Source: Candidatus Woesearchaeota archaeon (lineage in GTDB: Archaea; Nanobdellota; Nanobdellia; SCGC-AAA011-G17; PNOQ01). Taken from it: a stretch of DNA of 62,454 bases. Shown here piece by piece: positions 4,039 through 20,733 of this stretch. Location of the stretch: contig CAYUWX010000001.1 in assembly GCA_964448715.1 (NCBI GenBank), positions 1-62,454 of the forward strand, written 5' to 3'. The notes beneath the pieces were generated by a model. The model did not search any database. It saw nothing but the letters and a program-made list of their open reading frames with translations, and was not told where the DNA came from. The number at the start of each line of letters is the position of its first letter. The first letter of the stretch is position 1. A program made the position numbers and the translations under genes.

Positions 4039-5539
4039 AAAATTTCAATATTTTTGATTCTCTTGTTTTTAAATTTATTATAGGAACTCTTCCTGGCTCA
4101 GGTTTATGACCAACTTTTAACTGAAAAGGAGTTATAGATTGCCAACAACTTCCTGCAACTTTAGTTACTTTTCCATATTGGGTAATATTTGATTTATGTA
4201 TATGGCCAGATATAAAAAAATCAGGAACAATATCTATAATTAAATTATCTTCTTCTTTATTTGGAATGAATAGAGTTGAACCATGTGTTGGTGCTAAATG
4301 TCTTTTTTGTAATAAAAATTTCATAACTAAATTAGTTCTATCTGAAATAGTTTCACCAGAAAATCTTATACTTTCTACATTTTCAGAATAATTATCATAA
4401 CTATAACCATGATATAATAATACATTAAATCCTTCAAAATCTTTTGTTTTTGAAATATTAACATAAGAAGGGTTACTAACTAAAATTACATTTTCCATAT
4501 CATATAAATCATTAATCATATCTCTTCCTAGACTCGGTTGAGGTTCTGCAATTCTAACCGCATCATGATTTCCTGGACAAATAATAATATTAATGTCTTT
4601 TCTTATAATTTTCATTAATTCTATTACTTTTTTATATTGTAATTTTATATCAGGTATATTTTGTTCATCATCTTGATTGGGATAAATACCAACTCCATCT
4701 ACTAAATCACCTACAATAAATACATATTTTATTTTTTTTGCTACTTCTTTTTGTTCTTTTGTTCCGCTTTTAAGATTTAACCAATCTATAAATTTTAAAA
4801 ATTCGGATTCTAAAAATAATTCAGAACCAACATGAAGATCAGATAAAATTGCAATATATTCTTCTTTTGAAGATTTTTTTATATCTGTATTTTTTAGTAT
4901 ATCTGGGAAAAAAATATCATCAACAAAAATAATTTTATCACCATTAACTCCTTTAATACCAATAACTTCATCTAAAACTACATCTTTAGCTTTTTCAAAA
5001 AGTTCTTTTTTCGAATTATTAATTAAAATTGGAATATTTCCAGTATTATCTTCAATTATCAAAAGTAAATTATCATTTTTAGTATATCTTTTTTCAAAAA
5101 CAATACCTATTGTAGAAATTTTTTCCTTATCTTTTTTAGATAAAATTCTATTTATTGACAAAGGTGCCAATAATTCTGTTCTAGATTGTAATAATTTTCT
5201 TAATTGTTCATATCTTCTTGTATAGTGGGACGTGAAATCATTAACTTCTAACTTTTGAGATTTTTTATCAAAAGATTTTACAATTTCTACATTTGATTTA
5301 GTGTTTAAAACATTAATTTCAGGTTCAATTAATTGTTTTTTTTCAGTATTTTGTTTATGTTCAGAAATTAATTTATCTAATAATTTTTTATCAAACATTA
5401 GCATTTCACTAGAATTATTTTTTTCTAAATATTTATCTAAAATTTCAAATTCTAGTTTATTATTTTCTAAAAATGAAGAATCAATTAAATATCCTCTATT
5501 TAAAATTAATTTAATAATTTGTTTTATATGTTCAACCAT
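4016..5539 (-). CDS. polB: DNA polymerase II (PolD) small subunit DP1
   Basis: 507 aa with calcineurin-like phosphoesterase motifs (DLHVGS, GDLVDGVG, PGNHDA, GHIH) and an OB-like middle region. It sits in an operon between cdc6 and DP2. Confidence 0.9.
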   Translation of the reverse strand: MVEHIKQIIKLILNRGYLIDSSFLENNKLEFEILDKYLEKNNSSEMLMFDKKLLDKLISEHKQNTEKKQLIEPEINVLNTKSNVEIVKSFDKKSQKLEVNDFTSHYTRRYEQLRKLLQSRTELLAPLSINRILSKKDKEKISTIGIVFEKRYTKNDNLLLIIEDNTGNIPILINNSKKELFEKAKDVVLDEVIGIKGVNGDKIIFVDDIFFPDILKNTDIKKSSKEEYIAILSDLHVGSELFLESEFLKFIDWLNLKSGTKEQKEVAKKIKYVFIVGDLVDGVGIYPNQDDEQNIPDIKLQYKKVIELMKIIRKDINIIICPGNHDAVRIAEPQPSLGRDMINDLYDMENVILVSNPSYVNISKTKDFEGFNVLLYHGYSYDNYSENVESIRFSGETISDRTNLVMKFLLQKRHLAPTHGSTLFIPNKEEDNLIIDIVPDFFISGHIHKSNITQYGKVTKVAGSCWQSITPFQLKVGHKPEPGRVPIINLKTRESKILKFYEKDGKE

Positions 5540-6732
5540 TTTAGAAGATCTCCTTTTAATACAGGAATTTCTGTATCAGGAATAGTCATTTGTATTTCTC
5601 TAGTTCTGCCATATCTTCCTTTACTGATAACTTTTGCATTAATAACTCCTAACATATCTAATTCTGCAATTAAATCAGACATTCTTCTTTGAGTTAAAGG
5701 TTTTAATCCTATTTGATTTGACAAAATTTTATACAAATTATATACATCTCCTGTAAATATTTTATTAGAATTAGATTCATATAAATTAAAAGTAGCTAAT
5801 AAAACTAATTGAGATTGTTTAGGTAATGTACTTACTACATCAGATATTAAATCTCTTTCAATTTTTTCTTCGGCAATATCAATATGATCTATTAATAATT
5901 TATCGGAATTATTTCTTTCCGCCAATTCTCCTGCAACTCTTAATAAATCTAATGCACGTCTAGCATCTCCATGTTCTCTTGCAGCTAATGCTGCACATTT
6001 TTCTATAGCTCCTTGTTCTAATACTTTATCTTTAAATGCATTTTTAGATCTTTCATGTAAAATATCTTGAAGTTGTAATGCATTATATGATGAAAAATTG
6101 ATATCTTCTTCAGTTAAAGAAGATTTAACTCTAGGATCTATATCATTTGCGAATCTTAAATCATTAGATATACCTACAAAAGTTATTTGAGTATTTATTA
6201 ATTCTGAATTTAATCTTGTTAAATTATATAATATTTCATCTCCTGCTTTTTTTACTAATTGATCTATTTCATCAAGAATAAGTATAATATTTTTTTCTTC
6301 ATTATCTATACTTTCGATAAAAATTCTATAAATTTCATCGGTAGGTAATCCTGTTACAGGAACATTCTTACCAAAATTTCTTGCCAATGTTGCAATGAGT
6401 CTATATTCCGTATCTGCAACTTTTTTTAATTTACAATTCAAATAAAATATTTCTAAAGATACTTTTTTCTTTTTTGCAATTTTTTTTAATCTATCAACTA
6501 CATGTATAACTGATAAAGTTTTCCCTGTTCCAGTTTTACCATATAAAAAAAGATTAGATGGCTTTTCTCCTCTCAATGAAGGTGCAAGCATACTTGCTAT
6601 TTCTTTAATTTCTTTTTCCCTATGAGGAATAGTATCAGGAGTATAACTAGATTGCAAAACTTTTTTATCTTTAAATAATCCATCCTTAGTTAAATAATCT
6701 TCAAAAAATTCATTTATATCTGATTTTACCAT
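5524..6732 (-). CDS. cdc6: Orc1/Cdc6 replication initiator
   Basis: 402 aa with AAA+ Walker A (GKTGTGKT), Walker B (LILDEID) and a C-terminal winged helix. It lies immediately next to the ORB-containing intergenic region. Confidence 0.9.
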   Translation of the reverse strand: MVKSDINEFFEDYLTKDGLFKDKKVLQSSYTPDTIPHREKEIKEIASMLAPSLRGEKPSNLFLYGKTGTGKTLSVIHVVDRLKKIAKKKKVSLEIFYLNCKLKKVADTEYRLIATLARNFGKNVPVTGLPTDEIYRIFIESIDNEEKNIILILDEIDQLVKKAGDEILYNLTRLNSELINTQITFVGISNDLRFANDIDPRVKSSLTEEDINFSSYNALQLQDILHERSKNAFKDKVLEQGAIEKCAALAAREHGDARRALDLLRVAGELAERNNSDKLLIDHIDIAEEKIERDLISDVVSTLPKQSQLVLLATFNLYESNSNKIFTGDVYNLYKILSNQIGLKPLTQRRMSDLIAELDMLGVINAKVISKGRYGRTREIQMTIPDTEIPVLKGDLLKWLNI

Positions 6733-6799
6733 CTTTCAAATAGTTTTGATTCAAACAAATATAAATATTACTATTCTAAAAAATAGAGACAGAGACCTC

Positions 6800-6814
6800 T
6801 ATTTCATTTGGAGA
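6800..6814 (+). repeat. ORB-like box 1 (TATTTCATTTGGAGA)
   Basis: Matches box 2 at 13 of 15 positions. It is preceded by a C/T-rich string (agagacctc), which reads as a G-string on the other strand, as in canonical ORB elements. Confidence 0.6.
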
Positions 6815-6848
6815 TAATTTTTTAGAAAAACAGGTTATCTCTTCCTTT

Positions 6849-6863
6849 TATTTCATATGGAAA
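6849..6863 (+). repeat. ORB-like box 2 (TATTTCATATGGAAA)
   Basis: Internal dyad TTTC-ATATG-GAAA, 49 bp from box 1, preceded by ctcttcc. Confidence 0.6.
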
Positions 6864-7088
6864 ACATATATATTATATTATATTATTATATAATATATAA
6901 TATATATAATAATAAATCTTATAAATAAAATTTTAATTTAAAATTCAAATTTCATAAATACTAGATTTCTAATAATTAAATTTTTAAGAATTAAGAATTT
7001 AATTTAATTCTATAGAAGATAACAAAATAAAATTAACTTACAAAAAATAAATTATTAAAAACTCCAAAAGAAATTTATTATAAAAATT

Positions 7089-7103
7089 ATTCCATCAGAA
7101 ATA
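7089..7103 (-). repeat. ORB-like box 3, inverted (reverse complement TATTTCTGATGGAAT)
   Basis: Matches box 2 at 12 of 15 positions, in opposite orientation on the far side of the A/T-only tract. It is flanked by ggtgagaggg, the G-string equivalent. Confidence 0.55.
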
Positions 7104-7168
7104 AAGGTGAGAGGGTGTATCTAAAATAAAACAAACAATTTATATATTAATTAATATATAATATTAAT

Positions 7169-9689: not shown

Positions 9690-11348
9690 ATGGATTATAA
9701 AAAAAAGATAATTAATTTTCTAAATAAAGAATTAAATGAAAAATTAAATACTAATATATTAGAAATCCCTCCTTCTGAAGAATTAGGAGAATATTCTCTT
9801 CCATGTTTTATTTTTTCAAAAAAATTAAAAAAAGACCCAGTAAAACTAGCAAAAGATTTAGAAAAAATAAAATTCCCTAATTTTATAGAAAAAGTAAAAG
9901 CAATTGGGCCTTACTTAAATTTATATTTAAATAAAGAAAAAATTCTAAAACAAATTTACAATAAAAAAAAGGATTATGGTAGAAATAATAAAAAAGAAAA
10001 AATAATGATAGAATTTTCTAATCCTAACCCTTTCAAAGGTTTTCATATAGGGCATTTAAGAAATGCAATTATTGGGGAGAGTGTAACAAGATTACTTAAA
10101 TTTCAAGGATATAATGTAATGCCTGTAAATTATTATAATGATACTGGTAAACATGTTACAAAAACAATATGGGGTTTAGAAAATTTAAATATACCAAAGC
10201 CAGAGGACAACGATTTAGGAGAATGGTTAGGAAATATTTATTCAGAAAGTTCCAAGAAAGGAAAAGAAGAAGATTTTAGTAAAATTCATCAAAAATTAGA
10301 AAACAAAGATAAAAAATACATAAAATTATTCAAACAAGGATTAAAATGGAGCGAAGATCATTTTGATAATATTTACAAAGATTTAGATATAAAATTTTCA
10401 AAAATATATTATGATTCAAATTATATACTTAAAGGGAAAAAAATAATAAATGAATTATTAAAAAAGAAAATAGCTAAAGAAGATGAAGGTGCAATAATAT
10501 CAAATTTAGAAAAATATAAATTAAATACATTAATTCTTTTAAGATCAGATAAAACTTCTATGTATATAACTAAAGATCTTGCAATGGCAATAGATAGAAT
10601 AAATAAATTCAAATTAGATAGTTCTATTTATGTTGTAGGAAGTGAACAAAAATTACATTTTCAACAATTATTCAAATTATTAGAATTATATGGTTACAAA
10701 CAAGCAAAAAAATGTTACCACTTATCTTATGGATTAGTAAGTTTACCAGAAGGAAATATGTCTTCCAGATCAGGAAATATTATTTTATATAAAGAACTCA
10801 AAAGAAAATTATTAAATTTATTGGAAAAAGAAATAGAAAAAAGACATAAAGATAAATCTAAATTACAAAAAGAAAAAATAATAAAAGACATTTTTTCGGC
10901 AGCAATAAAATTTGATATGATTTTACATGATACAAATAAAGGAATAACATTTGATTTAAAAAAATCAATATCTTTTGAAGGAGATACTGGGCCATATATT
11001 CAATATGCACATACTAGGGCAAATTCTATTTTAAAAAAATCAAAAATCAAAATTACAAATAAAGTAGATTATAGTTTATTGACAAATAAAGAAGAACAAA
11101 ACTTAATTTCAAAATTATCTATGTTTCCAGAAATAACAAAAAATGCAGCAGAACAACATAAACCAAATATACTTGCTCAATATTTATTAAAATTATCTCA
11201 TCTATTCAGCGATTTTTATCATAATTGCCCATGTATAATAGAGGATAAAGAAATTCAAAAAGCAAGAATTCTTTTAGTAGACTGTACTAAACAAGTATTA
11301 AATAAAGGATTATATCTCCTAGGAATAAACGCACCTATAGAAATGTAG
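9690..11348 (+). CDS. argS: Arginyl-tRNA synthetase
   Basis: 552 aa with SNPNPFKGFHIGHLRN (HIGH region), an MSSRSG KMSKS-like loop and the typical C-terminal ...IEM ending. Confidence 0.9.
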   Translation: MDYKKKIINFLNKELNEKLNTNILEIPPSEELGEYSLPCFIFSKKLKKDPVKLAKDLEKIKFPNFIEKVKAIGPYLNLYLNKEKILKQIYNKKKDYGRNNKKEKIMIEFSNPNPFKGFHIGHLRNAIIGESVTRLLKFQGYNVMPVNYYNDTGKHVTKTIWGLENLNIPKPEDNDLGEWLGNIYSESSKKGKEEDFSKIHQKLENKDKKYIKLFKQGLKWSEDHFDNIYKDLDIKFSKIYYDSNYILKGKKIINELLKKKIAKEDEGAIISNLEKYKLNTLILLRSDKTSMYITKDLAMAIDRINKFKLDSSIYVVGSEQKLHFQQLFKLLELYGYKQAKKCYHLSYGLVSLPEGNMSSRSGNIILYKELKRKLLNLLEKEIEKRHKDKSKLQKEKIIKDIFSAAIKFDMILHDTNKGITFDLKKSISFEGDTGPYIQYAHTRANSILKKSKIKITNKVDYSLLTNKEEQNLISKLSMFPEITKNAAEQHKPNILAQYLLKLSHLFSDFYHNCPCIIEDKEIQKARILLVDCTKQVLNKGLYLLGINAPIEM

Positions 11349-11394: not shown

Positions 11395-11799
11395 ATGCCT
11401 ATAGTAGGATTTAATTTCGATAAAATCGGAGCAAAGAAAGATAATAAGATAACAGGAAAAGTTCAAATAAAGAATAATATAAATATCTCTTCAGTAGAGC
11501 AAGAAAAATTATCTGTAACTAGTTCAGAAGATATTTTAAAATTTAATTTTGAATTTAAAACGACATATGAGCCAAAAATAGGTGGATTACAAATTAATGG
11601 ACATGTATTATATATGGATGAACCCAAAAAAATAGAAGAAATAATGAGTTCTTGGAAAAAAAATAAATCTTTACCTAAAACTCTTTCACCATTAATAATA
11701 AATACTGTTTTAGCAAAATGTAATATCAAGGCTTTAACTTTAAGTCAGGATGTAAATTTACCTCCTCATATTAAACTGCCTATTGTTAAATCAAATTAA
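11395..11799 (+). CDS. Hypothetical protein with weak SecB-like resemblance
   Basis: 134 aa. The C-terminal LAKCNIKALTLSQDVNLPPHIKLP segment loosely resembles the SecB C-terminal region. Not verifiable here. Confidence 0.4.
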   Translation: MPIVGFNFDKIGAKKDNKITGKVQIKNNINISSVEQEKLSVTSSEDILKFNFEFKTTYEPKIGGLQINGHVLYMDEPKKIEEIMSSWKKNKSLPKTLSPLIINTVLAKCNIKALTLSQDVNLPPHIKLPIVKSN

Positions 11800-13463: not shown

Positions 13464-13495
13464 AATTTATATACTATTAAATTTTTAATTTAATT

Positions 13496-13969
13496 ATGTT
13501 TATTAGAAAGAAAAAAATAAGTGGAAAAGAATATGCTTATTTAATTAATAATAGATATAATAAGAGAAAAAAACAATCAAGACAGAAGTCAACAAAATAT
13601 TTAGGAAAAGTTATTAAATTATCAAACTTCGACAATCCTACACATGCTTCGACAGTCAGACAATCAATAATTAATGAATTTTCACAAAGAGGATTTAAAT
13701 TAAATAATAATAAATTAATCAATAAAGATATAATGATTGATTTAGAAAATTTAACTGTAACATGTAAGAATAAATCTATTTGTTTAGAATTAAACGAAGG
13801 ATTCTTATGTGATCATACTCTCATAAATTTAATCAATTTTAATGATGAAGATTTAAATCAAAAAGAAATGGTTCACAAATTTGCAGATGCATTTGTATCT
13901 GCAGGTATAAATTTACATCATGACTCTTTTATAGAATTATTTAAAAATAGATTAAACCCTCAAATTTAA
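13496..13969 (+). CDS. Hypothetical protein with a basic N-terminal beta-hairpin-like motif
   Basis: 157 aa. The N-terminus MFIRKKKISGKEYAYLINNRYNKRKKQSRQKSTKYLGKV resembles the N-termini of IS1634-type transposases and some archaeal element proteins. The gene carries two CGACA boxes (13626-13666). Confidence 0.45.
   Translation: MFIRKKKISGKEYAYLINNRYNKRKKQSRQKSTKYLGKVIKLSNFDNPTHASTVRQSIINEFSQRGFKLNNNKLINKDIMIDLENLTVTCKNKSICLELNEGFLCDHTLINLINFNDEDLNQKEMVHKFADAFVSAGINLHHDSFIELFKNRLNPQI
13626..13666 (+). repeat. Composite CGACA-box motif, copy 1 (ACTTCGACAATCCT + 8 nt + CTTCGACAGTCAGAC)
   Basis: Both half-motifs recur exactly at 14038-14065. Confidence 0.8.
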
Positions 13970-14013
13970 CCATATAATGCCTTATTCTCTCATAATTTAA
14001 GGATTTAATAATA

Positions 14014-14844
14014 GTGCCTAATTCTAAAAAACTCTCACTTCGACAATCCTTCGACAGTCAGACGACACAAAATAGACACTTCGACAACATAAAATCTTAT
14101 ATAATGAATATGATTACTCTTTTTGAATTAAAATTGGTGAATTTAGTATCAATAAAGGGTTCTTTTAAGAGAATTAAGGAAGAGATTAATAACTCAAATG
14201 CTAAAATAACGTCATTAGAAGACCAAATAAGGAAAATTAACTATAAATTAGATACATTATTAGAACAAAAAAACAAAAATTTATCTAAAAAATCGCTTGA
14301 TTTTAGTAAATTTGAAGGTTTAGAGGCCCCTAATGTCCAAATTAATAAAAGTTCCACAGGAAATGAAGGGGTCCTACGCCGACAATCAGACGACAAAGAG
14401 ACGACAATCAGACGACAAAGAGACGACAATCAGACAATAAAAAGCCGACAATACGACAATAAAACTATAAAAAAATTAGATAATTTTTATGATATTAAAA
14501 CATACAAAAAAGAACTAGAATCTAGGTTTTTAAGCCTTACAGATGCACAATTTAGGGTTTTTATGGCTATATATAGAATAGAAGAAAGATCAAATAATTC
14601 AGTAACTTATGCGGAAATAGCGTCGGAATTAACATTATCTCAAAGTTCTATAAGAGATTATGTTAGTGATTTATTATTAAGAAAAATTCCACTCACCAAA
14701 CATAGTTCTCCAAATAGGAAAGTGTTCTTATCTGTCCAAAAAGAGTTCAAAAACTTAAATATTTTAGAAAATTTACATGCATTACGAGAAAAAGATCTCT
14801 CACAAACTAGATTATCTGGTCAATTACATAATTTCTTGCACTAA
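14014..14844 (+). CDS. Coiled-coil / winged-helix DNA-binding protein, paralogue A
   Basis: 276 aa with a GTG start in the track; the internal Met at MNMITLF is an alternative. It has an N-terminal coiled-coil-like segment, a low-complexity linker encoded by 22-bp DNA repeats, and a C-terminal wHTH (LTDAQFRVFMAIYRIEE...VTYAEIASELTLSQSSIRDYVSDLLLRKIPL). Confidence 0.6.
   Translation: MPNSKKLSLRQSFDSQTTQNRHFDNIKSYIMNMITLFELKLVNLVSIKGSFKRIKEEINNSNAKITSLEDQIRKINYKLDTLLEQKNKNLSKKSLDFSKFEGLEAPNVQINKSSTGNEGVLRRQSDDKETTIRRQRDDNQTIKSRQYDNKTIKKLDNFYDIKTYKKELESRFLSLTDAQFRVFMAIYRIEERSNNSVTYAEIASELTLSQSSIRDYVSDLLLRKIPLTKHSSPNRKVFLSVQKEFKNLNILENLHALREKDLSQTRLSGQLHNFLH
14038..14089 (+). repeat. CGACA-box cluster at the 5' end of paralogue A (composite motif copy 2 plus two further boxes)
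   Basis: ACTTCGACAATCC-TTCGACAGTCAGA-CGACAC...ACTTCGACAAC. CGACA cores at 14042, 14053 and 14064 are spaced 11 bp apart; a fourth lies at 14083. Confidence 0.8.
14380..14467 (+). repeat. Tandem 22-bp repeat x4 (two exact, two degenerate), with an 11-bp sub-period
   Basis: Copies 14380-14401 and 14402-14423 are both CGACAATCAGACGACAAAGAGA. Copy 3 is CGACAATCAGACAATAAAAAGC and copy 4 is CGACAATACGACAATAAAACTA. Confidence 0.9.
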
Positions 14845-14874
14845 TTTAATTAAAATTAATTATTTATTAAGATA

Positions 14875-15495
14875 TTAACTCTCACTTTTTATTTTTTTTA
14901 ATGGTTTCTTTGTATATTTAATTAATATTTCTCTCTTTTTTATATCATTTATAAAAAATCTTTTCTTACCATTACTTTCACTTTTTTCTTCTAAGAGTCC
15001 AGGAATTTTCTTTTTTATATTATTTATTTGCCCTCTCACCGTAGATTCATCTTTTCCAAGTATTCTAGATAGATCTTCATAACTAAGCACTATATCTGTA
15101 TTTAACAAACTCCATACTATTGTTCTTTCCATTGCAGTTAATCTAAATAATTCTTTCTCCATATCTGTTTGGACAGATATTTCTTGTTGTTTGGACACAC
15201 TGTCCGTTTGTTTTGGACAAACAACTGTTTGTATTTGTTTGGACAGCTGTTTGGACACATCTTCTTGAGGTGTTTGTTCTACAAGATTTAACATAAACTC
15301 TTCAATAATTTTTAATCTAGAATCCATATCTTCTAAAATTTCACCATGAGTAGTTTTTGTTTCATCCAAATGTTTAATCCATTCTCCGACACCACTCATA
15401 TCTTCTTTTATTTTAGAAAAAGAATCATTTAAAGTATCATGTAAATGAGAAAACTTTTTTTCAAGATCACCTTTTTTTCTAAAAAAATTAAACAT
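14875..15495 (-). CDS. Coiled-coil / winged-helix DNA-binding protein, paralogue B
   Basis: 206 aa with the same architecture as paralogue A: coiled-coil-like N-terminus, a Q/K/S-rich linker encoded by TTGGACA boxes, and a wHTH (LTAMERTIVWSLLNTDIVLSYEDLSRILGKDESTVRGQINNIKKKIPGL). It shares the S-x-[IV]R...KIP[LG] pattern with A. Confidence 0.6.
   Translation of the reverse strand: MFNFFRKKGDLEKKFSHLHDTLNDSFSKIKEDMSGVGEWIKHLDETKTTHGEILEDMDSRLKIIEEFMLNLVEQTPQEDVSKQLSKQIQTVVCPKQTDSVSKQQEISVQTDMEKELFRLTAMERTIVWSLLNTDIVLSYEDLSRILGKDESTVRGQINNIKKKIPGLLEEKSESNGKKRFFINDIKKREILIKYTKKPLKKIKSES
15166..15257 (+). repeat. Array of five direct TTGGACA boxes plus one inverted copy
   Basis: Cores start at 15169, 15191 and 15213 (22-bp spacing), then at 15239 and 15251. 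An inverted TGTCC at 15201-15205 forms the palindrome GGACACACTGTCC. Confidence 0.9.
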
Positions 15496-15589
15496 ATTAT
15501 ATTCTTAGAATAACTTATTATTAAACTTTTTGTTTTTTTCCATAAAATTTATATATATCAATAATTAAAATATAAAAAGAGGAGGAAAA

Positions 15590-15775
15590 ATGCCTAGAAA
15601 AAAAATAAAAAAAAGAAATTTTGAATTGCCAGATGGTTTAACATTAGCATTATATTTAATATCTTTTATTCTTATGATTTTTGGTGCATGGTATCATAAA
15701 ATAAATTGGATATTATTAGGATTTATACCATTTATAGTATCATTATGGTATCAATATATGAATCTACATTTATAA
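15590..15775 (+). CDS. Hypothetical small membrane protein
   Basis: 61 aa with two hydrophobic helices. A strong Shine-Dalgarno sequence (GAGGAGG) lies 5 nt upstream of the ATG. Confidence 0.4.
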   Translation: MPRKKIKKRNFELPDGLTLALYLISFILMIFGAWYHKINWILLGFIPFIVSLWYQYMNLHL

Positions 15776-15849
15776 TTTTTCTTTTTTTCTTTACTTTTAA
15801 GTTGTAACAAATAGAAAGGTTTTTAAATCATCAATTCTAAAATTTAAGT

Positions 15850-16113
15850 ATGGTACATGAAATACACACTTTAGAAAATAGAACACAAATAATTGAAGAT
15901 AAAGTATGGCATTATACTTGTAATTCTCCAAGTTTAAAAATATTAAATAAATATGGTATTGATCCAATAGGTGACAAATATAATTGTCATGACCATAGGG
16001 AAGTTTTATTAATTCCACTAAAAGTATATCATAAATTAGGATTAGTTCCTACAAATGACATGAATGTATTAACCATACAAAGCGAATCTCTTTTAAAAAA
16101 ATTAGATTCCTAA
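15850..16113 (+). CDS. Hypothetical protein
   Basis: 87 aa with no recognisable family. Preferred over the overlapping antisense ORF 15797-16018 only because it is co-oriented with neighbours and has less low-complexity content. Confidence 0.3.
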   Translation: MVHEIHTLENRTQIIEDKVWHYTCNSPSLKILNKYGIDPIGDKYNCHDHREVLLIPLKVYHKLGLVPTNDMNVLTIQSESLLKKLDS

Positions 16114-16135
16114 AACCTTTAATCAAAACTTAAAA
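16112..16135 (+). repeat. Single copy of the TTTAATCAAAACT unit plus flank, abutting the ATG of ORF 16136
   Basis: AAAACCTTTAATCAAAACTTAAAA matches 17407-17430 at 23 of 24 positions. The 18-mer TTTAATCAAAACTTAAAA is exact. Confidence 0.8.
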
Positions 16136-16447
16136 ATGAAAAAATCAACTATAATATACTCTAAAAAAGATTTTTTTTCTAAAAAAGATTTAGAAAAAAT
16201 AATCAATTTTTCAGAAGAAAAAGAAAAGATAGAAATAATTAATGATAAAAGAGGATTCATCTATTTATATAGAAATAGTCAAACAAAAAGAAAGATCAAA
16301 CCAACTTATGTTTCAAATTTATCAAAATATAATTTTTCTGAGGATAATATCAAAAATTTATTAAATCAAAAAAATATCAATTATGTTAGAATATTTACTA
16401 AACCAAATGATTTAGAAATTAGTGCAGGAAATTATTGCAATTTTTAA
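16136..16447 (+). CDS. Hypothetical protein
   Basis: 103 aa, lysine-rich, no recognisable family. It lies immediately upstream of the recombinase. Confidence 0.4.
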   Translation: MKKSTIIYSKKDFFSKKDLEKIINFSEEKEKIEIINDKRGFIYLYRNSQTKRKIKPTYVSNLSKYNFSEDNIKNLLNQKNINYVRIFTKPNDLEISAGNYCNF

Positions 16448-16470
16448 TTTTTAGAAAGATTTTTATAGAA

Positions 16471-16505
16471 TTATTCCAATAAGGTTAACTATTATTCCAA
16501 TAAGG
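16471..16505 (+). promoter_or_regulatory. Two exact copies of the 14-mer TTATTCCAATAAGG, 21 bp apart, upstream of the recombinase gene
   Basis: Copies at 16471-16484 and 16492-16505. Each contains the dyad TTATT-CC-AATAA. They lie 64-98 nt upstream of the recombinase ATG. Confidence 0.6.
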
Positions 16506-16568
16506 GAACCCTTTTTGGAAGTCATTAAACCTACAAATTAGGGCAATACTGGCCAAAACAAGCAAAAA

Positions 16569-17351
16569 ATGGGTGATACTAAACTTAAAACTGCAATCTA
16601 TGTAAGAGTTTCTACAGATGAGCAAGCAAAAGAAGGAATTTCTATGGATGCACAGATTCAAAAGTGCAAATCTTATTGTGATGCAAGAGATTGGGAAGCA
16701 ACTCAAATATATACAGATGCGGGACAATCTGCAGGAACAATGAATAGGCCTGCAGTTCAACAATTAATTAAAGATTTAGATCACGGAAAATTTCAAAATA
16801 TATTAGTTTACAAATTTGATAGATTTTCTAGGAATCTTAGAGATCTTATTTCATTTTTAGATAATATAAAAAAGAAAGGAATTAATTTTACTTCTGTAAC
16901 TGAAAATATAGATACAACAACCGCAATGGGTGAAGCATTTTTTCAAATGATAGGTGTTTTTGCACAATTAGAGAGAGGAATGGTAAAAGAGAGAGTTAAA
17001 TTAGCTTTCGATAAGAAGGCAGAAGATGGAGGGGCACTCAATAGGCCGCCATTTGGATATAGATTTAGGCAAAAAAAGATGATACCTCATGAAAATGAGT
17101 CAGAAATAGTTAAAGATATTTTTGAAATGAGGTCAAGAGGGATAAATTATAAAGATATTTCAGATAAATTTTCAATACCTATATCAACATTATATAACAT
17201 AATTAAAAATCCTGTTTACGTCGGTAAAATAAGATATAAGGGTAAATTGTATAAGGGGGCACATAAGGCATTAATCAAAGAAGAAATTTTTTCAAAAATA
17301 AATCCTAGTCATTTAGGGGAACAAAAACTTTTAATCAAAGATAATAAATAG
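16569..17351 (+). CDS. Serine recombinase (resolvase/invertase catalytic domain plus a short recombinase-domain/HTH tail)
   Basis: AIYVRVSTDEQ (catalytic Ser context), GISMDAQ, FDRFSRN, and a C-terminal PPFGYRF...IVKDIFEMRSRGINYKDISDKF...IIKNPVYVGK. At 260 aa it lacks the zinc-ribbon/coiled-coil of large serine integrases. Confidence 0.85.
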   Translation: MGDTKLKTAIYVRVSTDEQAKEGISMDAQIQKCKSYCDARDWEATQIYTDAGQSAGTMNRPAVQQLIKDLDHGKFQNILVYKFDRFSRNLRDLISFLDNIKKKGINFTSVTENIDTTTAMGEAFFQMIGVFAQLERGMVKERVKLAFDKKAEDGGALNRPPFGYRFRQKKMIPHENESEIVKDIFEMRSRGINYKDISDKFSIPISTLYNIIKNPVYVGKIRYKGKLYKGAHKALIKEEIFSKINPSHLGEQKLLIKDNK

Positions 17352-17364
17352 TATGCCTAAATAA

Positions 17365-17430
17365 TTTAATCAAAAATAAAAATATTTTTAATCAAAACTT
17401 TTAATCAAAACTTTTAATCAAAACTTAAAA
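17365..17430 (+). repeat. Tandem 13-bp repeat TTTAATCAAAACT (three exact copies plus degenerate copies)
   Basis: Exact copies at 17387-17399, 17400-17412 and 17413-17425. A degenerate copy lies at 17365-17377, and a partial copy lies inside the recombinase 3' end at 17330-17340. Confidence 0.9.
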
Positions 17431-17475
17431 TAAAATTAACAAAAAATTTATAAACAAATTTTAATAAAAATAAAT

Positions 17476-18063
17476 ATGATTCAATTATCGCCCCAAGGAG
17501 CATATAATATTATAGAACCCTTACTATTGTTTATAACAGGATTAGCAGTTTATTCGATTTTAGTATTCAATTTATATAAATTTGTAGCAAGGAGAGATAT
17601 TTTTGATTTAAATTTAAGACAATATAATAGATTACAACATAATTTTTTATATAAAACATATGCAGTTTTTTTATATTTTTTAGAATATTTATTATTTTTT
17701 CCATTATTTTTAACAGTTTGGTTCATTGCATTTTCTATAATGATAATATCATTGACAAAACAAACAGATGTTGCAATAGTATTATTGATATCTATGGCAA
17801 TTGTATCTACAATAAGAGTATTATCTTACTACAAACAAACTTTGTCTAAAGAAGTTGCAAAACTTTTGCCTTTTGCATTATTGGCTGTTTTTTTAATGGA
17901 CATTTCTTTTTTCTCATGGAAAAAATCATGGAATTTATTAGTTCAAATTCCTACCCTAATAGACATTTTAATTTATTATTTTGTATTTGTAGTAGCTTTA
18001 GAATTCATTTTAAGAATATTTTATTCAATTTTTAAGGCACTATCTTCTAGAGACGAAAAATAA
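17476..18063 (+). CDS. Hypothetical polytopic membrane protein
   Basis: 195 aa with about 5 hydrophobic helices. Confidence 0.5.
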   Translation: MIQLSPQGAYNIIEPLLLFITGLAVYSILVFNLYKFVARRDIFDLNLRQYNRLQHNFLYKTYAVFLYFLEYLLFFPLFLTVWFIAFSIMIISLTKQTDVAIVLLISMAIVSTIRVLSYYKQTLSKEVAKLLPFALLAVFLMDISFFSWKKSWNLLVQIPTLIDILIYYFVFVVALEFILRIFYSIFKALSSRDEK

Positions 18064-18138
18064 TCAATTTCTCGACGGAAAAAGATAAGATTTATATACT
18101 ATTATTTTCAAAAATTAAGTATTATTTTTAAAAAGGAG

Positions 18139-18324
18139 GTGAATAATTTGGGAAAAATTATTGTTAAAAATGTTGTGGAAAGAAAATCTGGTTATCTTTA
18201 CTATGTAGATGGAAAAGGAAATGTTTGTGAAGCAAAGATGGCAAGAGGTGGCAAAAAGAAGAAAAAAGCCGCTAAGAAAAAACCTGTAGCAAAAAAGAAA
18301 GTAGCTAAGAAAAAGAAAAAATAA
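18139..18324 (+). CDS. Small basic protein with a poly-lysine tail
   Basis: Sequence ...KSGYLYYVDGKGNVCEAKMARGGKKKKKAAKKKPVAKKKVAKKKKK. The Shine-Dalgarno AGGAGGTG overlaps the GTG at 18139, so the TTG at 18148 is the more likely start. Confidence 0.5.
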   Translation: MNNLGKIIVKNVVERKSGYLYYVDGKGNVCEAKMARGGKKKKKAAKKKPVAKKKVAKKKKK

Positions 18325-18344
18325 ATTTATTTTTAATTATTTTT

Positions 18345-18755
18345 TTATTTTTCTTTAAAAAAACTTGTTAACTCTTTATTTGATTTCTTTTGAATTTTTT
18401 GAACCTTTCTATATCCTACTAATTCTAATTTAGATCTTTCTCCACAAGAAGGACATTTTGTAGGGGAGTCTTTATCTGTAGTATTAGACATCCATTCCCA
18501 ATTACAATTATGGCAAAGCATAGTATATCTAATCATATTATCTCCAGATAAACTAGCAGGAATACGATTTAAACCATTATAGACTAACAAAATTTTTAAG
18601 AGTAATAATACTAGTGCAGAATAAATCATAGCTAAAATGTATTTATTTTGAATAGTATCTAATAATGCTAATGCAATAAATATAATAATAAAACTAGTAA
18701 CAAAAATACTTATTCCTGGAACAATTCTTACTTTTGCTAAATTATCAAATGACAT
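18345..18755 (-). CDS. Membrane protein with a C-terminal zinc ribbon
   Basis: 136 aa with two transmembrane helices followed by CHNCNWEW...CPSCGE. Confidence 0.5.
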   Translation of the reverse strand: MSFDNLAKVRIVPGISIFVTSFIIIFIALALLDTIQNKYILAMIYSALVLLLLKILLVYNGLNRIPASLSGDNMIRYTMLCHNCNWEWMSNTTDKDSPTKCPSCGERSKLELVGYRKVQKIQKKSNKELTSFFKEK

Positions 18756-18785
18756 AAAAAAGAAAATCAGGAGTAATTTATAAAA

Positions 18786-19493
18786 TTAACCCATATAACT
18801 AACTTCTTTTTCAGTTTTATGTTCTTTTATTTTTTTAGTACTTTCTAAAATAGTTTTTAATTTATTTTCAAATTCTTCAGCTTTTTTGATTAATGGTTTA
18901 TAATCTACTTTTAATCCAAGATATTTATCAAGAACTTTTATTGTTTTAGCAGCAGCTCTACTATCTGGAAATCCTGAAGCAGTTTCAACAAATATGCAAG
19001 ATATAGGATATTTTTTCAATTTTAATATGAGGCTTGCAGTTGGACCAATTACAATTCCTTCTTTTATTGGATCAATATCCATTTTATTCCATTTAGTTTT
19101 ATTTTTATTACTGTAATAATAAGTCTCACTTTTTTTATTTTTTCCGCCAACACCCTCTATGCAAATTAATTCTTTGGCATTTAGTTTTTTAGTTATTTCT
19201 TTTACAGCTAATGCTATTTTCCATTCCATCCCTGCAACATTTGTAATTGCATGAAGAAGTACTAAGTTATATTTTTTAGAATAAAATATTCCGAATGGGT
19301 CAACAATTTTACTATCATGAATTGCAATAATAGGATTCATTTCAGAAAACCAAACTGATCCAATAGGTTCTGCAACTAAATGTTCAATTAAATATTCACT
19401 AGTAATAGTTCCAACAAGTCCAAATCCAGGAAAACCACAAACTATTTTCACATTTTGTGGTTTTTTATTAAATTCTATTTTCATATATAACAT
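18786..19493 (-). CDS. PAC2-family (proteasome assembly chaperone-like) protein
   Basis: GFPGFGLVGTITSEYLIEHL near the N-terminus is typical of the PAC2/PbaA-PbaB family. The C-terminus ends ...EVSYMG. An alternative start is Met4 (19484). Confidence 0.65.
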   Translation of the reverse strand: MLYMKIEFNKKPQNVKIVCGFPGFGLVGTITSEYLIEHLVAEPIGSVWFSEMNPIIAIHDSKIVDPFGIFYSKKYNLVLLHAITNVAGMEWKIALAVKEITKKLNAKELICIEGVGGKNKKSETYYYSNKNKTKWNKMDIDPIKEGIVIGPTASLILKLKKYPISCIFVETASGFPDSRAAAKTIKVLDKYLGLKVDYKPLIKKAEEFENKLKTILESTKKIKEHKTEKEVSYMG

Positions 19494-20324: not shown

Positions 20325-20365
20325 TAACAACATTTTTAAATTAAATTTTAGTTCTTTTTAATATT

Positions 20366-20440
20366 GGGTCCGTAGCTCAGTTTGGTGGTAGCACTTGGCT
20401 CTTAACCAAGGGGTCGTGGGTTCAAATCCCATCGGGCCCA
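20366..20440 (+). tRNA. tRNA-Lys (anticodon CUU)
   Basis: Folded by hand: acceptor GGGTCCG/CGGGCCC, anticodon stem CTTGG/CCAAG, loop CTCTTAA, T-arm GTGGG-TTCAAAT-CCCAT, discriminator A. No encoded CCA and no intron. Confidence 0.9.
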
Positions 20441-20733
20441 AATTTCTCATCAAATTTTTCTTTTGCCATTTCTTCTTTTTTATACACAGTATGGCTAGCT
20501 CTTTTTTCAAATAAAGAAATAGCAATTCTCACAACATCACTTTGATAATCATTCATATTATTATCAGAAATAATTTTTCTAGCATCTTCAATACACTCCC
20601 TCATAAGGAAAATAACTTCTTTTTTAGAATTTAATTCAACTTTTTTTTCTTCATCAGCATTTAAATAAATTTCTTCCCAAATAGGATAACTACTTTTTTC
20701 AGTAGTTCTTGGAAAAGTTTTAGAAAAAACCAT
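20422..20733 (-). CDS. Hypothetical protein
   Basis: 103 aa. Its last 19 nt, including the stop, overlap the 3' end of tRNA-Lys on the opposite strand. It forms an overlapping pair with the upstream wHTH gene. Confidence 0.4.
   Translation of the reverse strand: MVFSKTFPRTTEKSSYPIWEEIYLNADEEKKVELNSKKEVIFLMRECIEDARKIISDNNMNDYQSDVVRIAISLFEKRASHTVYKKEEMAKEKFDEKFGPDGI

Follow-up and report, generated by a model that had tools for sequence, protein, structure and literature searches.

An origin-proximal locus conserved in Woesearchaeota and Pacearchaeota, with DNA elements and an origin recognition box embedded in two convergent winged-helix genes

A block of about 4 kb (positions 13464-17475) in a 62,454-nucleotide (nt) contig from a Candidatus Woesearchaeota archaeon (CAYUWX010000001.1) raises the question of whether a cluster of unassigned genes, dense repeats and a site-specific recombinase is an integrated element or a resident part of the chromosome. 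The whole contig stretch, here called the window, has a G+C content of about 26.7%, its closest genome matches are Candidatus Woesearchaeota metagenome-assembled genomes (MAGs), and its source is a DPANN archaeon. The genes around the block are archaeal housekeeping genes, encoding Orc1/Cdc6, the PolD small subunit, LonB, ArgRS, PAC2, SerRS, a topoisomerase and CDC48, and an earlier note on this DNA had proposed that the block is an integrated plasmid or virus-like element. The open reading frames (ORFs) listed for the block are all present (Table 1). We find that the block is this lineage's version of a conserved neighbourhood with the order orc1/cdc6-oriC...o134...(o157 or a small wHTH gene)-wHTH1-wHTH2-small membrane protein-recombinase, in which the convergent genes wHTH1 and wHTH2 encode winged helix-turn-helix (wHTH) proteins. 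This origin-proximal module carries four classes of cis-element under constraint at the nucleotide level, and what appears in the wHTH1 protein as a conserved peptide motif is, in the DNA, an origin recognition box (ORB).

Synteny was determined by tblastn of the window proteins against four related Woesearchaeota MAG contigs and eight metagenome or Logan loci. The order LonB-ArgRS-o134-(EamA)-o171-o157-wHTH1-wHTH2-o61-[gap]-o195-o61b-o136-PAC2 is common to all of these loci, whose ArgRS proteins are 37-78% identical to that of the window. An empty site, which the earlier note had suggested looking for in relatives, did not appear: o157-wHTH1-wHTH2-o61 stands between the same flanks in 12 of the 12. 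The only part that varies among relatives is the gap between o61 and o195, which measures 1.2 to 3.3 kb. Since homologues of o87 occur in this gap in two relatives (L037 and L031), the lineage-specific part consists of o103 and the serine recombinase gene, SerRec. Of the proposed element, then, the right end (o103 and SerRec, about 16118-17424) is indeed variable and is missing from the closest relatives, while the remainder is syntenic. Twenty population contigs from different samples, 99.9-100% identical across the block, show neither an empty site nor an indel. No relative of wHTH2 was found in 2.9 million viral contigs (IMG/VR), the viral relatives of SerRec reach only 30-33% identity, and a search for PHROG and Pfam hallmark genes, outside whose scope plasmid collections lay, returned none in the block except the recombinase. 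Neither a flanking att pair nor an adjacent tRNA target was found. Integration at a tRNA is ruled out, as no tRNA adjoins the block (the nearest begins at 20365), which bears out the earlier note's remark that no tRNA-linked att site is recognisable. A compositional island is likewise ruled out by the G+C and codon profiles. The impression that the recombinase and wHTH genes are richer in G+C than their neighbours was not borne out: the block has a G+C fraction of 0.249 against 0.267 for the window, SerRec (0.300, z-score 0.9), wHTH1 (0.283) and wHTH2 (0.271) compare with a gene mean of 0.266 +/- 0.036, and codon usage is host-like, with all genes within about 2.7 standard deviations. The sole composition outlier is the G+C content at third codon positions (GC3) of wHTH1, which is due to the boxes described below. 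A conserved locus with conserved flanks and host-like composition, the very finding that the earlier note had named as speaking against its own proposal, refutes the integrated-element reading, and we reject with high confidence the idea that the block is a recent mobile element.

The convergent wHTH1/wHTH2 pair recurs, on chromosomes, in about 65 Woesearchaeota and Pacearchaeota lineages. The 65 wHTH2 homologues are all about 200 amino acids (aa) long and are encoded on chromosomal contigs of up to 377 kb; in the 80 metagenome loci from a wHTH2 profile search, a wHTH1 homologue lies convergent just downstream of wHTH2 in nearly every case where the contig is long enough. From 1.84 billion representatives, a profile search with wHTH1 recovered 641 clusters at 50% identity with E<=1e-10. 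In 15 of the 22 loci with at least 9 kb of flank, the pair has orc1/cdc6 and a canonical oriC at a distance of 2.5-9 kb, without exception on the side of wHTH1, and this linkage persists even in lineages whose gene order is otherwise almost completely altered. In Pacearchaeota-like contigs the order is PolD-Orc1-oriC-PRC-o134-small wHTH-wHTH1-wHTH2-SerRec; the small wHTH protein, of about 90 aa, replaces o157 in several other lineages (L027, L029, L031, L058, L114 and L115).

The description of the pair as two convergent coiled-coil/wHTH genes holds up in AlphaFold2 (AF2) models and Foldseek searches. In wHTH1 a coiled-coil helix (aa 4-60) is followed by a disordered linker (aa 60-122), a MarR-like wHTH domain (aa 126-215) and a C-terminal helix; in wHTH2 the coiled-coil helix spans aa 4-74, the disordered linker aa 75-109 and the wHTH domain aa 110-194. 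The predicted local distance difference test score exceeds 90 for both wHTH domains, which match MarR/ArsR/Lrs14 folds (MepR, MarR and AbfR2, probability 1.0, target template-modelling score 0.47-0.6), with MarR/MepR as the top matches for wHTH1. Neither protein scores above a family cut-off in Pfam, no MarR match reaching it, and sequence searches against solved structures gave only coiled-coil noise and weak HTH matches and were set aside. The paralogy of the two genes, which the earlier note had assumed, is seen at profile level (hhalign probability 88%, E 3e-6, in the wHTH domain only), while BLASTP finds no signal. The two are thus distant paralogues, MarR-like coiled-coil winged-helix DNA-binding proteins that are presumably dimeric. 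Profiles of iteron-type initiators remain below curated cut-offs (DnaD_N 0.0037, DnaD_Mollicutes 0.016, phage_O_Nterm 0.053), and no gene for a partition motor, whether actin-like, tubulin-like, ParA or another ATPase or GTPase, is adjacent in any neighbourhood examined. The start of wHTH1 is ambiguous between ATG at 14104 or 14110, TTG at 14134 and GTG at 14137; the 276-aa ORF previously drawn from GTG at 14014 is over-extended.

The four exact repeat families that had been noticed in the block are all real and essentially confined to it. All five window copies of CGACAATC and five of the six of CTTCGACA lie within the block (0.16 and 0.22 expected, respectively), as do all four exact copies of TGTTTGGACA and all four of TTTAATCAAAAC. 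The interval 13630-15391 contains 14 of the window's 21 CGACA and seven of its nine TGTCCAAA. Upstream of wHTH1, a CTCTCAC (14032-14038) is followed by CGACA at 14041, 14052, 14063 and 14082, three of them spaced by 11 nt, and the TATA-like TTATATAA lies 3' of these boxes, at 14097-14104. In three orthologues (L021, L022 and L023) the corresponding cluster is upstream of an in-frame stop codon, directly 5' of cATAAATTATTATAAAT, and because this stop separates the first box cluster from the gene, the cluster at 14032-14086 is promoter DNA. Inside wHTH1, CGACA boxes begin at 14380, 14391, 14402, 14413, 14424, 14446 and 14454, in an array that is conserved in orthologues and for which Tandem Repeats Finder (TRF) gives a period of 11/22 nt with 92% matches; with this period the array is read in all three frames, as RRQSDDKETTIRRQRDDNQTIKSRQYDNK. 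The wHTH2 boxes, TGTCCAAACA, have spacings of 22, 22, 26 and 12 nt, are translated as V-S-K-Q, C-P-K-Q and S-V-Q-T, and are separated by unrelated sequence, not tandem; their core, CAAACAG, is invariant (CAAACAG/GTCCAAAC). In both genes the arrays coincide exactly with the linker-coding DNA, and the motif cores persist across lineages whose proteins are only 35-40% identical. When synonymous codons were resampled with each protein sequence held fixed in 62 lineages, [CA]GACA in wHTH1 was observed 477 times against 188 expected (101, 181 and 195 in the three frames) and GTCCAAA in wHTH2 145 times against 17 (79, 13 and 53), an over-representation of 2.5-8x. The repeats are therefore elements of the DNA and not protein repeats.

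The wHTH1 boxes co-vary with the recognition helix of the protein. The helix S[EQ]SSIRDY pairs with GACA-type arrays, either (CAGA)n or CGACA at 11-nt spacing, the helix xGCIR[ST]Y with (ATTC)n arrays and the helix EACIRSY with (TCAC)n arrays; in the ATTC clade (L031 and L042) the non-coding boxes on the promoter side have likewise switched, to ATTCATTCA. As the box sequence co-varies with the helix, wHTH1 most likely binds its own gene and promoter. The recognition helix of wHTH2, in turn, is nearly invariant (K-D-x-S-T-V-R-G-Q).

A further class of box, CTCTCAC, reads GTGAGAG on the wHTH2 sense strand. Six copies occur in the window, four of them in the block and one in an oriC ORB. Across the family its density is 1.50/kb in the region of the pair against 0.062/kb outside, a 24-fold difference, in one orientation only, and in Pacearchaeota-like loci with a long convergent spacer the boxes fall in non-coding DNA. 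The wider form AAAGTGAGRG resembles the G-string of an ORB, and the copy at 15033-15039 has the sequence GGTGAGAGGG, which is also that of the G-string in the oriC ORB. The C-terminal tail of wHTH2, K-S-E-S* (14875-14886 and orthologues), is encoded by AAAAGTGAGAGTTAA, a unidirectional GTGAGAG box, and the recognition-helix codons T-V-R-G likewise read GGTGAGAGGG; both conserved peptides may reflect DNA elements.

The invariant peptide S-x-G-N-x-G-V of wHTH1 is encoded by TTCCAnnnGAAAT..GGGG, which is the dyad plus G-string of an ORB, and the box array begins right after it. In the window the element, TTCCACAGGAAATGAAGGGGT, encodes S-T-G-N-E-G-V and has the polarity of the oriC ORBs at 7062 and 7090, those on its side of the unwinding element. 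The sequence TTCCANNNGAAAT occurs exactly only three times in the window, at 6850(-) and 7090(+) in oriC and at 14352(+) in wHTH1; the oriC ORBs read TTCCATATGAAAT and TTCCATCAGAAATAAAGGTGAGAGGG, and the wHTH1 element matches them in the dyad core, TTCC-N-GGAA/GAAA, and the G-rich string, which qualifies it as an ORB. It also closely resembles the Pyrococcus ORB, TTCCAGTGGAAATGAAACTCTGGGGG (PMC1904270). The unwinding stretch of oriC is (AT)n-rich, the cumulative GC-skew minimum falls at 6.5-7 kb, and the same architecture upstream of orc1 is repeated in 20 related loci. The embedded ORB is present in 59 of 59 lineages, with the exact core in 55. Its codons are rare ones, Ser TCC and Gly GGA in 59/59 and GGG for the second Gly in 58/59, and T closes the preceding codon in 55/59 despite variation in the residue encoded (S, I, V, T, F or G). 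With a GC3 of about 13% (the window value) in these genomes, such fixed codons reveal selection on nucleotides. In related loci totalling about 700 kb, the exact core was found 58 times in wHTH1, in the sense orientation, and 45 times within 800 nt upstream of orc1, and elsewhere only 17 times, or 0.024 per kb. In Pacearchaeota-like lineages wHTH1 boxes lie on both sides of the embedded ORB. The sequence AGAGACAGAGACC beside orc1 was considered as a wHTH1 box at oriC and rejected, being a conserved ORB extension that is unchanged in the ATTC-box clade. GC skew was also considered as evidence of a second origin; it is uninformative on this point because it follows the gene strand.

We consider it probable that these observations describe an origin-associated nucleoprotein locus whose binding sites for Orc1 and both coiled-coil wHTH proteins lie within the wHTH genes. 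That the boxes and the ORB are functional DNA sites is very likely; the particular assignments, Orc1 to the ORB and each wHTH protein to its own sites, are plausible with somewhat better than even confidence, and a replication-linked role of the locus is a tentative suggestion. In such a locus the linker-coding DNA of wHTH1 and wHTH2 would double as a set of cis-elements: Orc1 would bind the ORB inside wHTH1, and wHTH1 and wHTH2, as coiled-coil dimers, would bind the arrays in their own genes, wHTH2 its CAAACAG-core array. On some 1.5 kb of DNA at a distance of 7.5 kb from oriC, Orc1 and multiple wHTH dimers could then come together in a higher-order nucleoprotein complex. Such a complex would give feedback control of the wHTH1 and wHTH2 genes and would most likely couple both to replication initiation, either as an auxiliary or negative-control ORB site or as a second replicator-initiator pair. 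There are precedents for parts of this scheme. Cdc6/Orc1 binds an ORB cluster that lies inside dp1, beside oriC, and is maintained across the Thermococcales (PMC1904270), a downstream ORB cluster in haloarchaea has been proposed as a negative regulator of the origin, and WhiP is a winged-helix initiator encoded beside oriC3 (PMC4010727). The earlier suggestion that the wHTH/box pairs serve replication or partition thus fits the evidence, as a feature of an origin-proximal chromosomal locus and not as mobile cargo. A centromere-like role is possible, and it is conceivable that a common ancestor captured an extrachromosomal replicon long ago. In a bolder version, Woese- and Pacearchaeota chromosomes would possess in this locus either a second replicator-initiator unit or an element dedicated to origin control, with an Orc1-binding ORB inside the gene of a lineage-specific winged-helix co-initiator among that protein's own iterons, derived from an anciently captured replicon with a persisting SerRec/XerA slot. 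On that view the locus would correspond, on an archaeal chromosome, to lambda O/ori; we hold this version to be unlikely, if worth stating.

Several points weigh against a nucleoprotein locus of Orc1 and the wHTH proteins. Seven of the 22 long loci lack an orc1 gene within 10 kb. Orc1 binds a single ORB weakly in Pyrococcus, where a lone mini-ORB outside oriC was unbound in vivo (PMC1904270). The element at 14352 has no inverted ORB partner in 13-16 kb, even with one mismatch allowed, and no distinct unwinding element is seen beside it, although at 26% G+C such an element is hard to discern. It may instead be the invariant helix of wHTH2 that recognises the palindromic TTTCCAnnGGAAA. The co-variation of boxes and helices is imperfect, as CCAACA-type arrays accompany the same SESSIRDY helix in L060 and L108; the ATTC group is probably one clade, so that the independent box-helix switches are few; and box units of 4, 8 and 11 nt equally fit slippage-prone simple repeats. 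Finally, the support for the model is wholly comparative.

One alternative is that wHTH1 and wHTH2 form an ordinary auto- or cross-regulated transcription-factor module, such as a toggle of two convergent repressors, in which the ORB-like dyad is a wHTH operator, most plausibly that of wHTH2, and the nearness of oriC is accidental. Both proteins have a MarR-like fold, a TATA-like element directly adjoins the wHTH1 boxes, an arrangement seen in archaeal operators, the dyad TTTCCAnnGGAAA has the palindromic symmetry that a dimeric wHTH protein would be expected to recognise and is invariant along with the wHTH2 helix, and in Pyrococcus Orc1 binds a lone ORB core poorly (PMC1904270). However, the dyad and G-run agree, in the core as well as in the extension, with the canonical archaeal ORB and with the oriC ORBs of the same organism, and the orc1 linkage survives the loss of nearly all other gene order. 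Outside wHTH1, moreover, the core occurs almost only at oriC, so that if wHTH2 binds the core, wHTH2 would itself be an origin-binding protein. We regard a purely regulatory module as a rather unlikely explanation.

The variable right end of the block invites a second alternative, that o103 and SerRec (about 16118-17424) are a small mobile recombinase cassette of about 1.3 kb that repeatedly targets this locus and has displaced xerA here and, independently, in L022. The identification of a 260-aa serine recombinase was confirmed by the Pfam matches given in Table 1 and by an RVSTDEQ motif with the nucleophile serine S15 intact. SerRec aligns to residues 8-239 of the 542 of CcrB and to the phrog_95 integrase, and has the catalytic and 'Recombinase' domains without a zinc-ribbon/coiled-coil domain. 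In most sister lineages the gap holds instead a well-conserved XerA tyrosine recombinase (70-100% identical among these lineages) that ends in NVLDDIEE, while no XerA is encoded anywhere in the 62 kb of the window. Thirty-six distinct lineages have 3 kb or more of sequence upstream of wHTH2; near wHTH2, 14 of them carry a XerA-like recombinase, six carry SerRec, none carries both and 16 carry neither. L022 has a different serine recombinase (35% identical) followed by a LAGLIDADG-like, homing-endonuclease-like ORF (17896-19224; gap positions 1181-2509) whose last residues are the C-terminal XerA peptide NVLDDIEE, suggestive of an overwritten xerA, and in L058 (7854-9270) and L115 (8001-10084) HNH-endonuclease ORFs fused to a second, fragmentary 'Recombinase' domain lie beside SerRec. 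The SerRec proteins are also 60-64% identical between hosts whose wHTH2 proteins are only 34-42% identical, as a mobile cassette would explain.

Against mobility, the codon usage of SerRec is more host-like than that of the average gene, and its G+C z-score of 0.9 is unremarkable. The family comprises 796 proteins at E<1e-20, is uniformly about 250 aa in length (244-290 aa among the 120 best matches listed), is 62-70% identical across Woese-, Pace- and Nanoarchaeia, and is encoded on long chromosomal contigs of up to 511 kb, whereas viral relatives are at most 33% identical. Of four sampled contexts, three place SerRec in this origin-proximal neighbourhood, as does L058, and members of the family hold that place in the contig of P0088, L058, L114 and L115; the identical relative position in deeply divergent Pacearchaeota-like genomes suits strongly conserved vertical inheritance and targeting equally. 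The flanking TTTAATCAAAAC repeats, which were considered as element ends or as att or res sites of SerRec, are not specific to the cassette: the box follows gene ends at the same intergenic spots in XerA-bearing relatives, and its retention there shows that it is not a SerRec-specific att site. This sharing of boxes and the recurrence in one neighbourhood make the recombinase a recurrent resident. We conclude that SerRec is a resident and probably vertically common gene that alternates with XerA, not the integrase of a 4-kb element, and that the cassette explanation is doubtful; the approximately 250-aa SerRec may be a non-orthologous replacement of XerA in chromosome dimer resolution. Between the recombinase gene and the o195 homologue, L022, L023 and L034-L037 carry a conserved intergenic element with a 7-nt inverted repeat, (AATAATAAAC/ACTAAAATATTTAATAATAAAC)-TAAAAG-ATTTATTAC, which relatives with XerA possess. 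Its palindromic form, AATAATAAAC-TAAAAG-ATTTATTAC, was rejected as a dif-like site, being absent from the window; an archaeal dif is not expected next to xerA.

A third alternative takes the arrays to be slippage-generated simple repeats, tolerated in disordered linkers or acting there as contingency loci with frameshift on/off switching, and without a protein-binding role. Units of 4 nt ((CAGA)n, (ATTC)n and (TCAC)n), 8 nt and 11 nt, some of them in perfect tandem with as many as about nine copies, repeat units within a coding region that are not a multiple of 3, a motif that differs by clade and the exact coincidence of the arrays with the disorder in the AF2 models would all fit. So would the finding that five short assemblies from different runs (L009 and L017-L020) end inside the CGACA array (window 14406-14416); such breaks are likely a k-mer repeat artefact. 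Yet no copy-number or indel variant of the arrays is present among the 20 assembled population contigs (consensus assemblies hide minority variants), the wHTH2 boxes are interspersed with unrelated sequence, and the same boxes occur in non-coding promoter DNA, where they change in concert with the internal array. The persistence of the cores at low protein identity also speaks against slippage, as do the adjacent ORB and GTGAGAG boxes, which are not repeats and are equally constrained. We consider this explanation improbable. Least credible of all is the recent integration of the whole block as a plasmid- or virus-like element with wHTH/iteron genes for replication or partition and SerRec as integrase: a site-specific recombinase, many unassigned ORFs, dense repeats and a gap of differing length would suit it, but every relative, down to an ArgRS identity of 37%, has the left 2.3 kb at this site, about 65 lineages carry the pair on the chromosome, no wHTH2 relative was found in viral contigs, composition is host-like, the terminal repeats are common to SerRec-less relatives, and neither an att pair nor, in the population contigs, an empty site is present, so that we think it almost certainly wrong.

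The components of the locus, wHTH proteins, ORBs, iteron-like arrays and serine and tyrosine recombinases, are of known kinds, and several known systems resemble parts of it. In phage lambda, the winged-helix protein O binds repeats inside its own gene, in the segment that codes for a flexible linker joining two domains, and protein and site are inherited together. The likeness to ori-lambda lies in these repeats within the linker-coding DNA of a winged-helix protein's own gene; the locus described here differs in having no significant homology to lambda O, in being chromosomal and archaeal, and in having two convergent paralogues and an Orc1-type ORB. It also resembles iteron-type initiators in its direct repeats within and beside the gene, which co-vary with the recognition helix and are its predicted cognate sites. 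Repeat arrays serve as centromeres in ParR/parC (plasmid R1), TubR/tubC and ParB/parS. The likeness here lies in short direct repeats at about one helical turn (11/22 nt), bound, as the comparison suggests, by a small dimeric protein, and, for parS/parB, in the near-origin position. In contrast to these centromeres, the locus is without an adjacent ATPase or GTPase gene in the loci examined, and its arrays are inside coding DNA. SerRec shares the catalytic and first DNA-binding domains of the large serine recombinases (phage integrases, CcrB and XisF) and occupies the slot of XerA in sister lineages. It differs from the large serine integrases, of about 450-700 aa with zinc-ribbon and coiled-coil domains, in its length of about 250 aa without those domains, and from typical integrases in its 62-70% identity across a whole archaeal class. 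The ORB cluster in dp1 of Thermococcales (Matsunaga et al. 2007, PMC1904270) is similar in that ORBs lie within a protein-coding gene a few kb from oriC and are conserved throughout an order. That cluster is bound by Cdc6/Orc1 in vivo and in vitro in Pyrococcus, whereas for the wHTH1 ORB such binding is predicted; it is a cluster and not a single full ORB, and here the host gene encodes a DNA-binding protein and the ORB lies beside lineage-specific box arrays. In the WhiP-oriC3 system of Sulfolobus (PMC4010727) a winged-helix protein is likewise encoded beside its proposed target DNA at a replication origin, and ancient extrachromosomal capture is conceivable here too, given the recombinase next door. 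WhiP differs in being Cdt1-like with two winged-helix domains and an oriC3 without a classic ORB, as opposed to a coiled coil with a single MarR-like winged helix and a classic ORB. In literature searches on Woesearchaeota winged helices and tandem repeats and on DPANN serine recombinases we found no description of this wHTH family or arrangement.

To our knowledge, replication and chromosome maintenance are essentially unstudied in DPANN archaea, these organisms being uncultivated. The locus provides a concrete, conserved handle on their chromosomes, as two small proteins, an ORB and defined arrays are tractable in vitro. It is also a predicted case of dual coding, in which the SxGNxGV peptide and the low-complexity linkers would exist because their DNA is a protein-binding site, and as such it calls for caution in the reading of conserved motifs and disordered repeats in compact genomes. 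That XerA and a short serine recombinase alternate strictly at one locus raises the idea that a serine recombinase can take over a housekeeping recombinase role in archaea. For annotation, the combination of a recombinase, ORFans and repeats is insufficient to call an integrated element.

Table 1. Positions of the genes and DNA elements of the locus and its surroundings in the window.
Feature	Position	Strand	Basis or remark
orc1/cdc6 initiator	5524..6732	-	Pfam AAA_22, Cdc6_lid, WHD_Cdc6
Canonical oriC	6733..7168	.	Inverted ORBs around AT-rich unwinding stretch at about 6865-6920
oriC ORBs	6801-6813, 6850-6862, 7062-7074, 7090-7102	-, -, +, +	Last one followed by G-string GGTGAGAGGG
o157	13496..13969	+	Function-unassigned conserved syntenic gene of the window's Woesearchaeota clade; orthologues 61-83% identical, same position
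wHTH1 promoter region	14032..14104	+	One CTCTCAC and four CGACA boxes, TATA-like TTATATAA
wHTH1	14110..14844	+	AF2, Foldseek, family profile, orthologue starts
TGTCCAAA box, wHTH2-type, inside wHTH1	14334..14341	+	Second copy at 14733-14740
Embedded origin recognition box TTCCACAGGAAATGAAGGGGT	14352..14372	+	Inside wHTH1
wHTH1 internal box array	14380..14465	+	Seven CGACA boxes; TRF
CTCTCAC boxes across convergent 3' ends	14797..15039	+	14797-14803, 14879-14885, 15033-15039
wHTH2	14875..15495	-	AF2, Foldseek, 65 homologues, alignment
wHTH2 internal box array	15166..15257	-	Five TGTCCAAA(CA) boxes
o61, small membrane protein	15590..15775	+	Beside wHTH2; orthologues in all Woesearchaeota loci
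o87, small ORF	15850..16113	+	Homologues in equivalent gap of some relatives (L037 51%, L031 48%)
Single TTTAATCAAAAC box	16118..16129	+	Immediately 3' of o87 stop codon
o103, lineage-specific ORF	16136..16447	+	G+C 0.179, the block minimum
Serine recombinase SerRec, 260 aa	16569..17351	+	Pfam Resolvase (PF00239) 6.5e-42, Recombinase (PF07508) 1.5e-9
TTTAATCAAAAC repeats	17365..17424	+	3.2 tandem 13-nt units and one spaced copy, between SerRec and o195
tRNA-Lys(CTT)	20365-20441		3 kb downstream of block; nearest tRNA

Among the remaining genes of the block, the small ORFs had been described as unrecognisable orphans, which holds for o103, without a homologue in relatives or a family match, but not for o157, o61 and o87, which have syntenic homologues. 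The product of o157, whose gene contains two CTTCGACA boxes (13627-13634 and 13647-13654), has no significant match in family and profile searches; a weak Pfam match to 'Sulfolobus virus coat protein C-terminal' (E 0.0015, below cut-off) was taken as noise. No known RNA family was found in 12.5-18.5 kb. The tRNA-Lys(CTT) gene is overlapped by a spurious minus-strand ORF and bears no sign of integration. Towards the origin, the identity of ArgRS (window 9690-11348) is bimodal, about 47% in L024, L035 and L036 against 70-78% in L021, L022, L023 and L037, while the flanking LonB (78-81%) and o134 (73-80%) are uniformly similar in the same relatives, which suggests that argS has been replaced by a divergent allele or xenologue at a fixed locus. 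The o134 gene (11395-11799, no family match) and, immediately upstream of LonB at about 7.5-7.8 kb, a gene for an 87-aa PRC-barrel protein show linkage to orc1/oriC in Woese- as well as Pacearchaeota. Of 81 loci, 31 have an o134 homologue, which is located between the pair and orc1 in every case where the locus includes orc1. Both o134 and the PRC-barrel gene may be part of the same origin-proximal functional neighbourhood.

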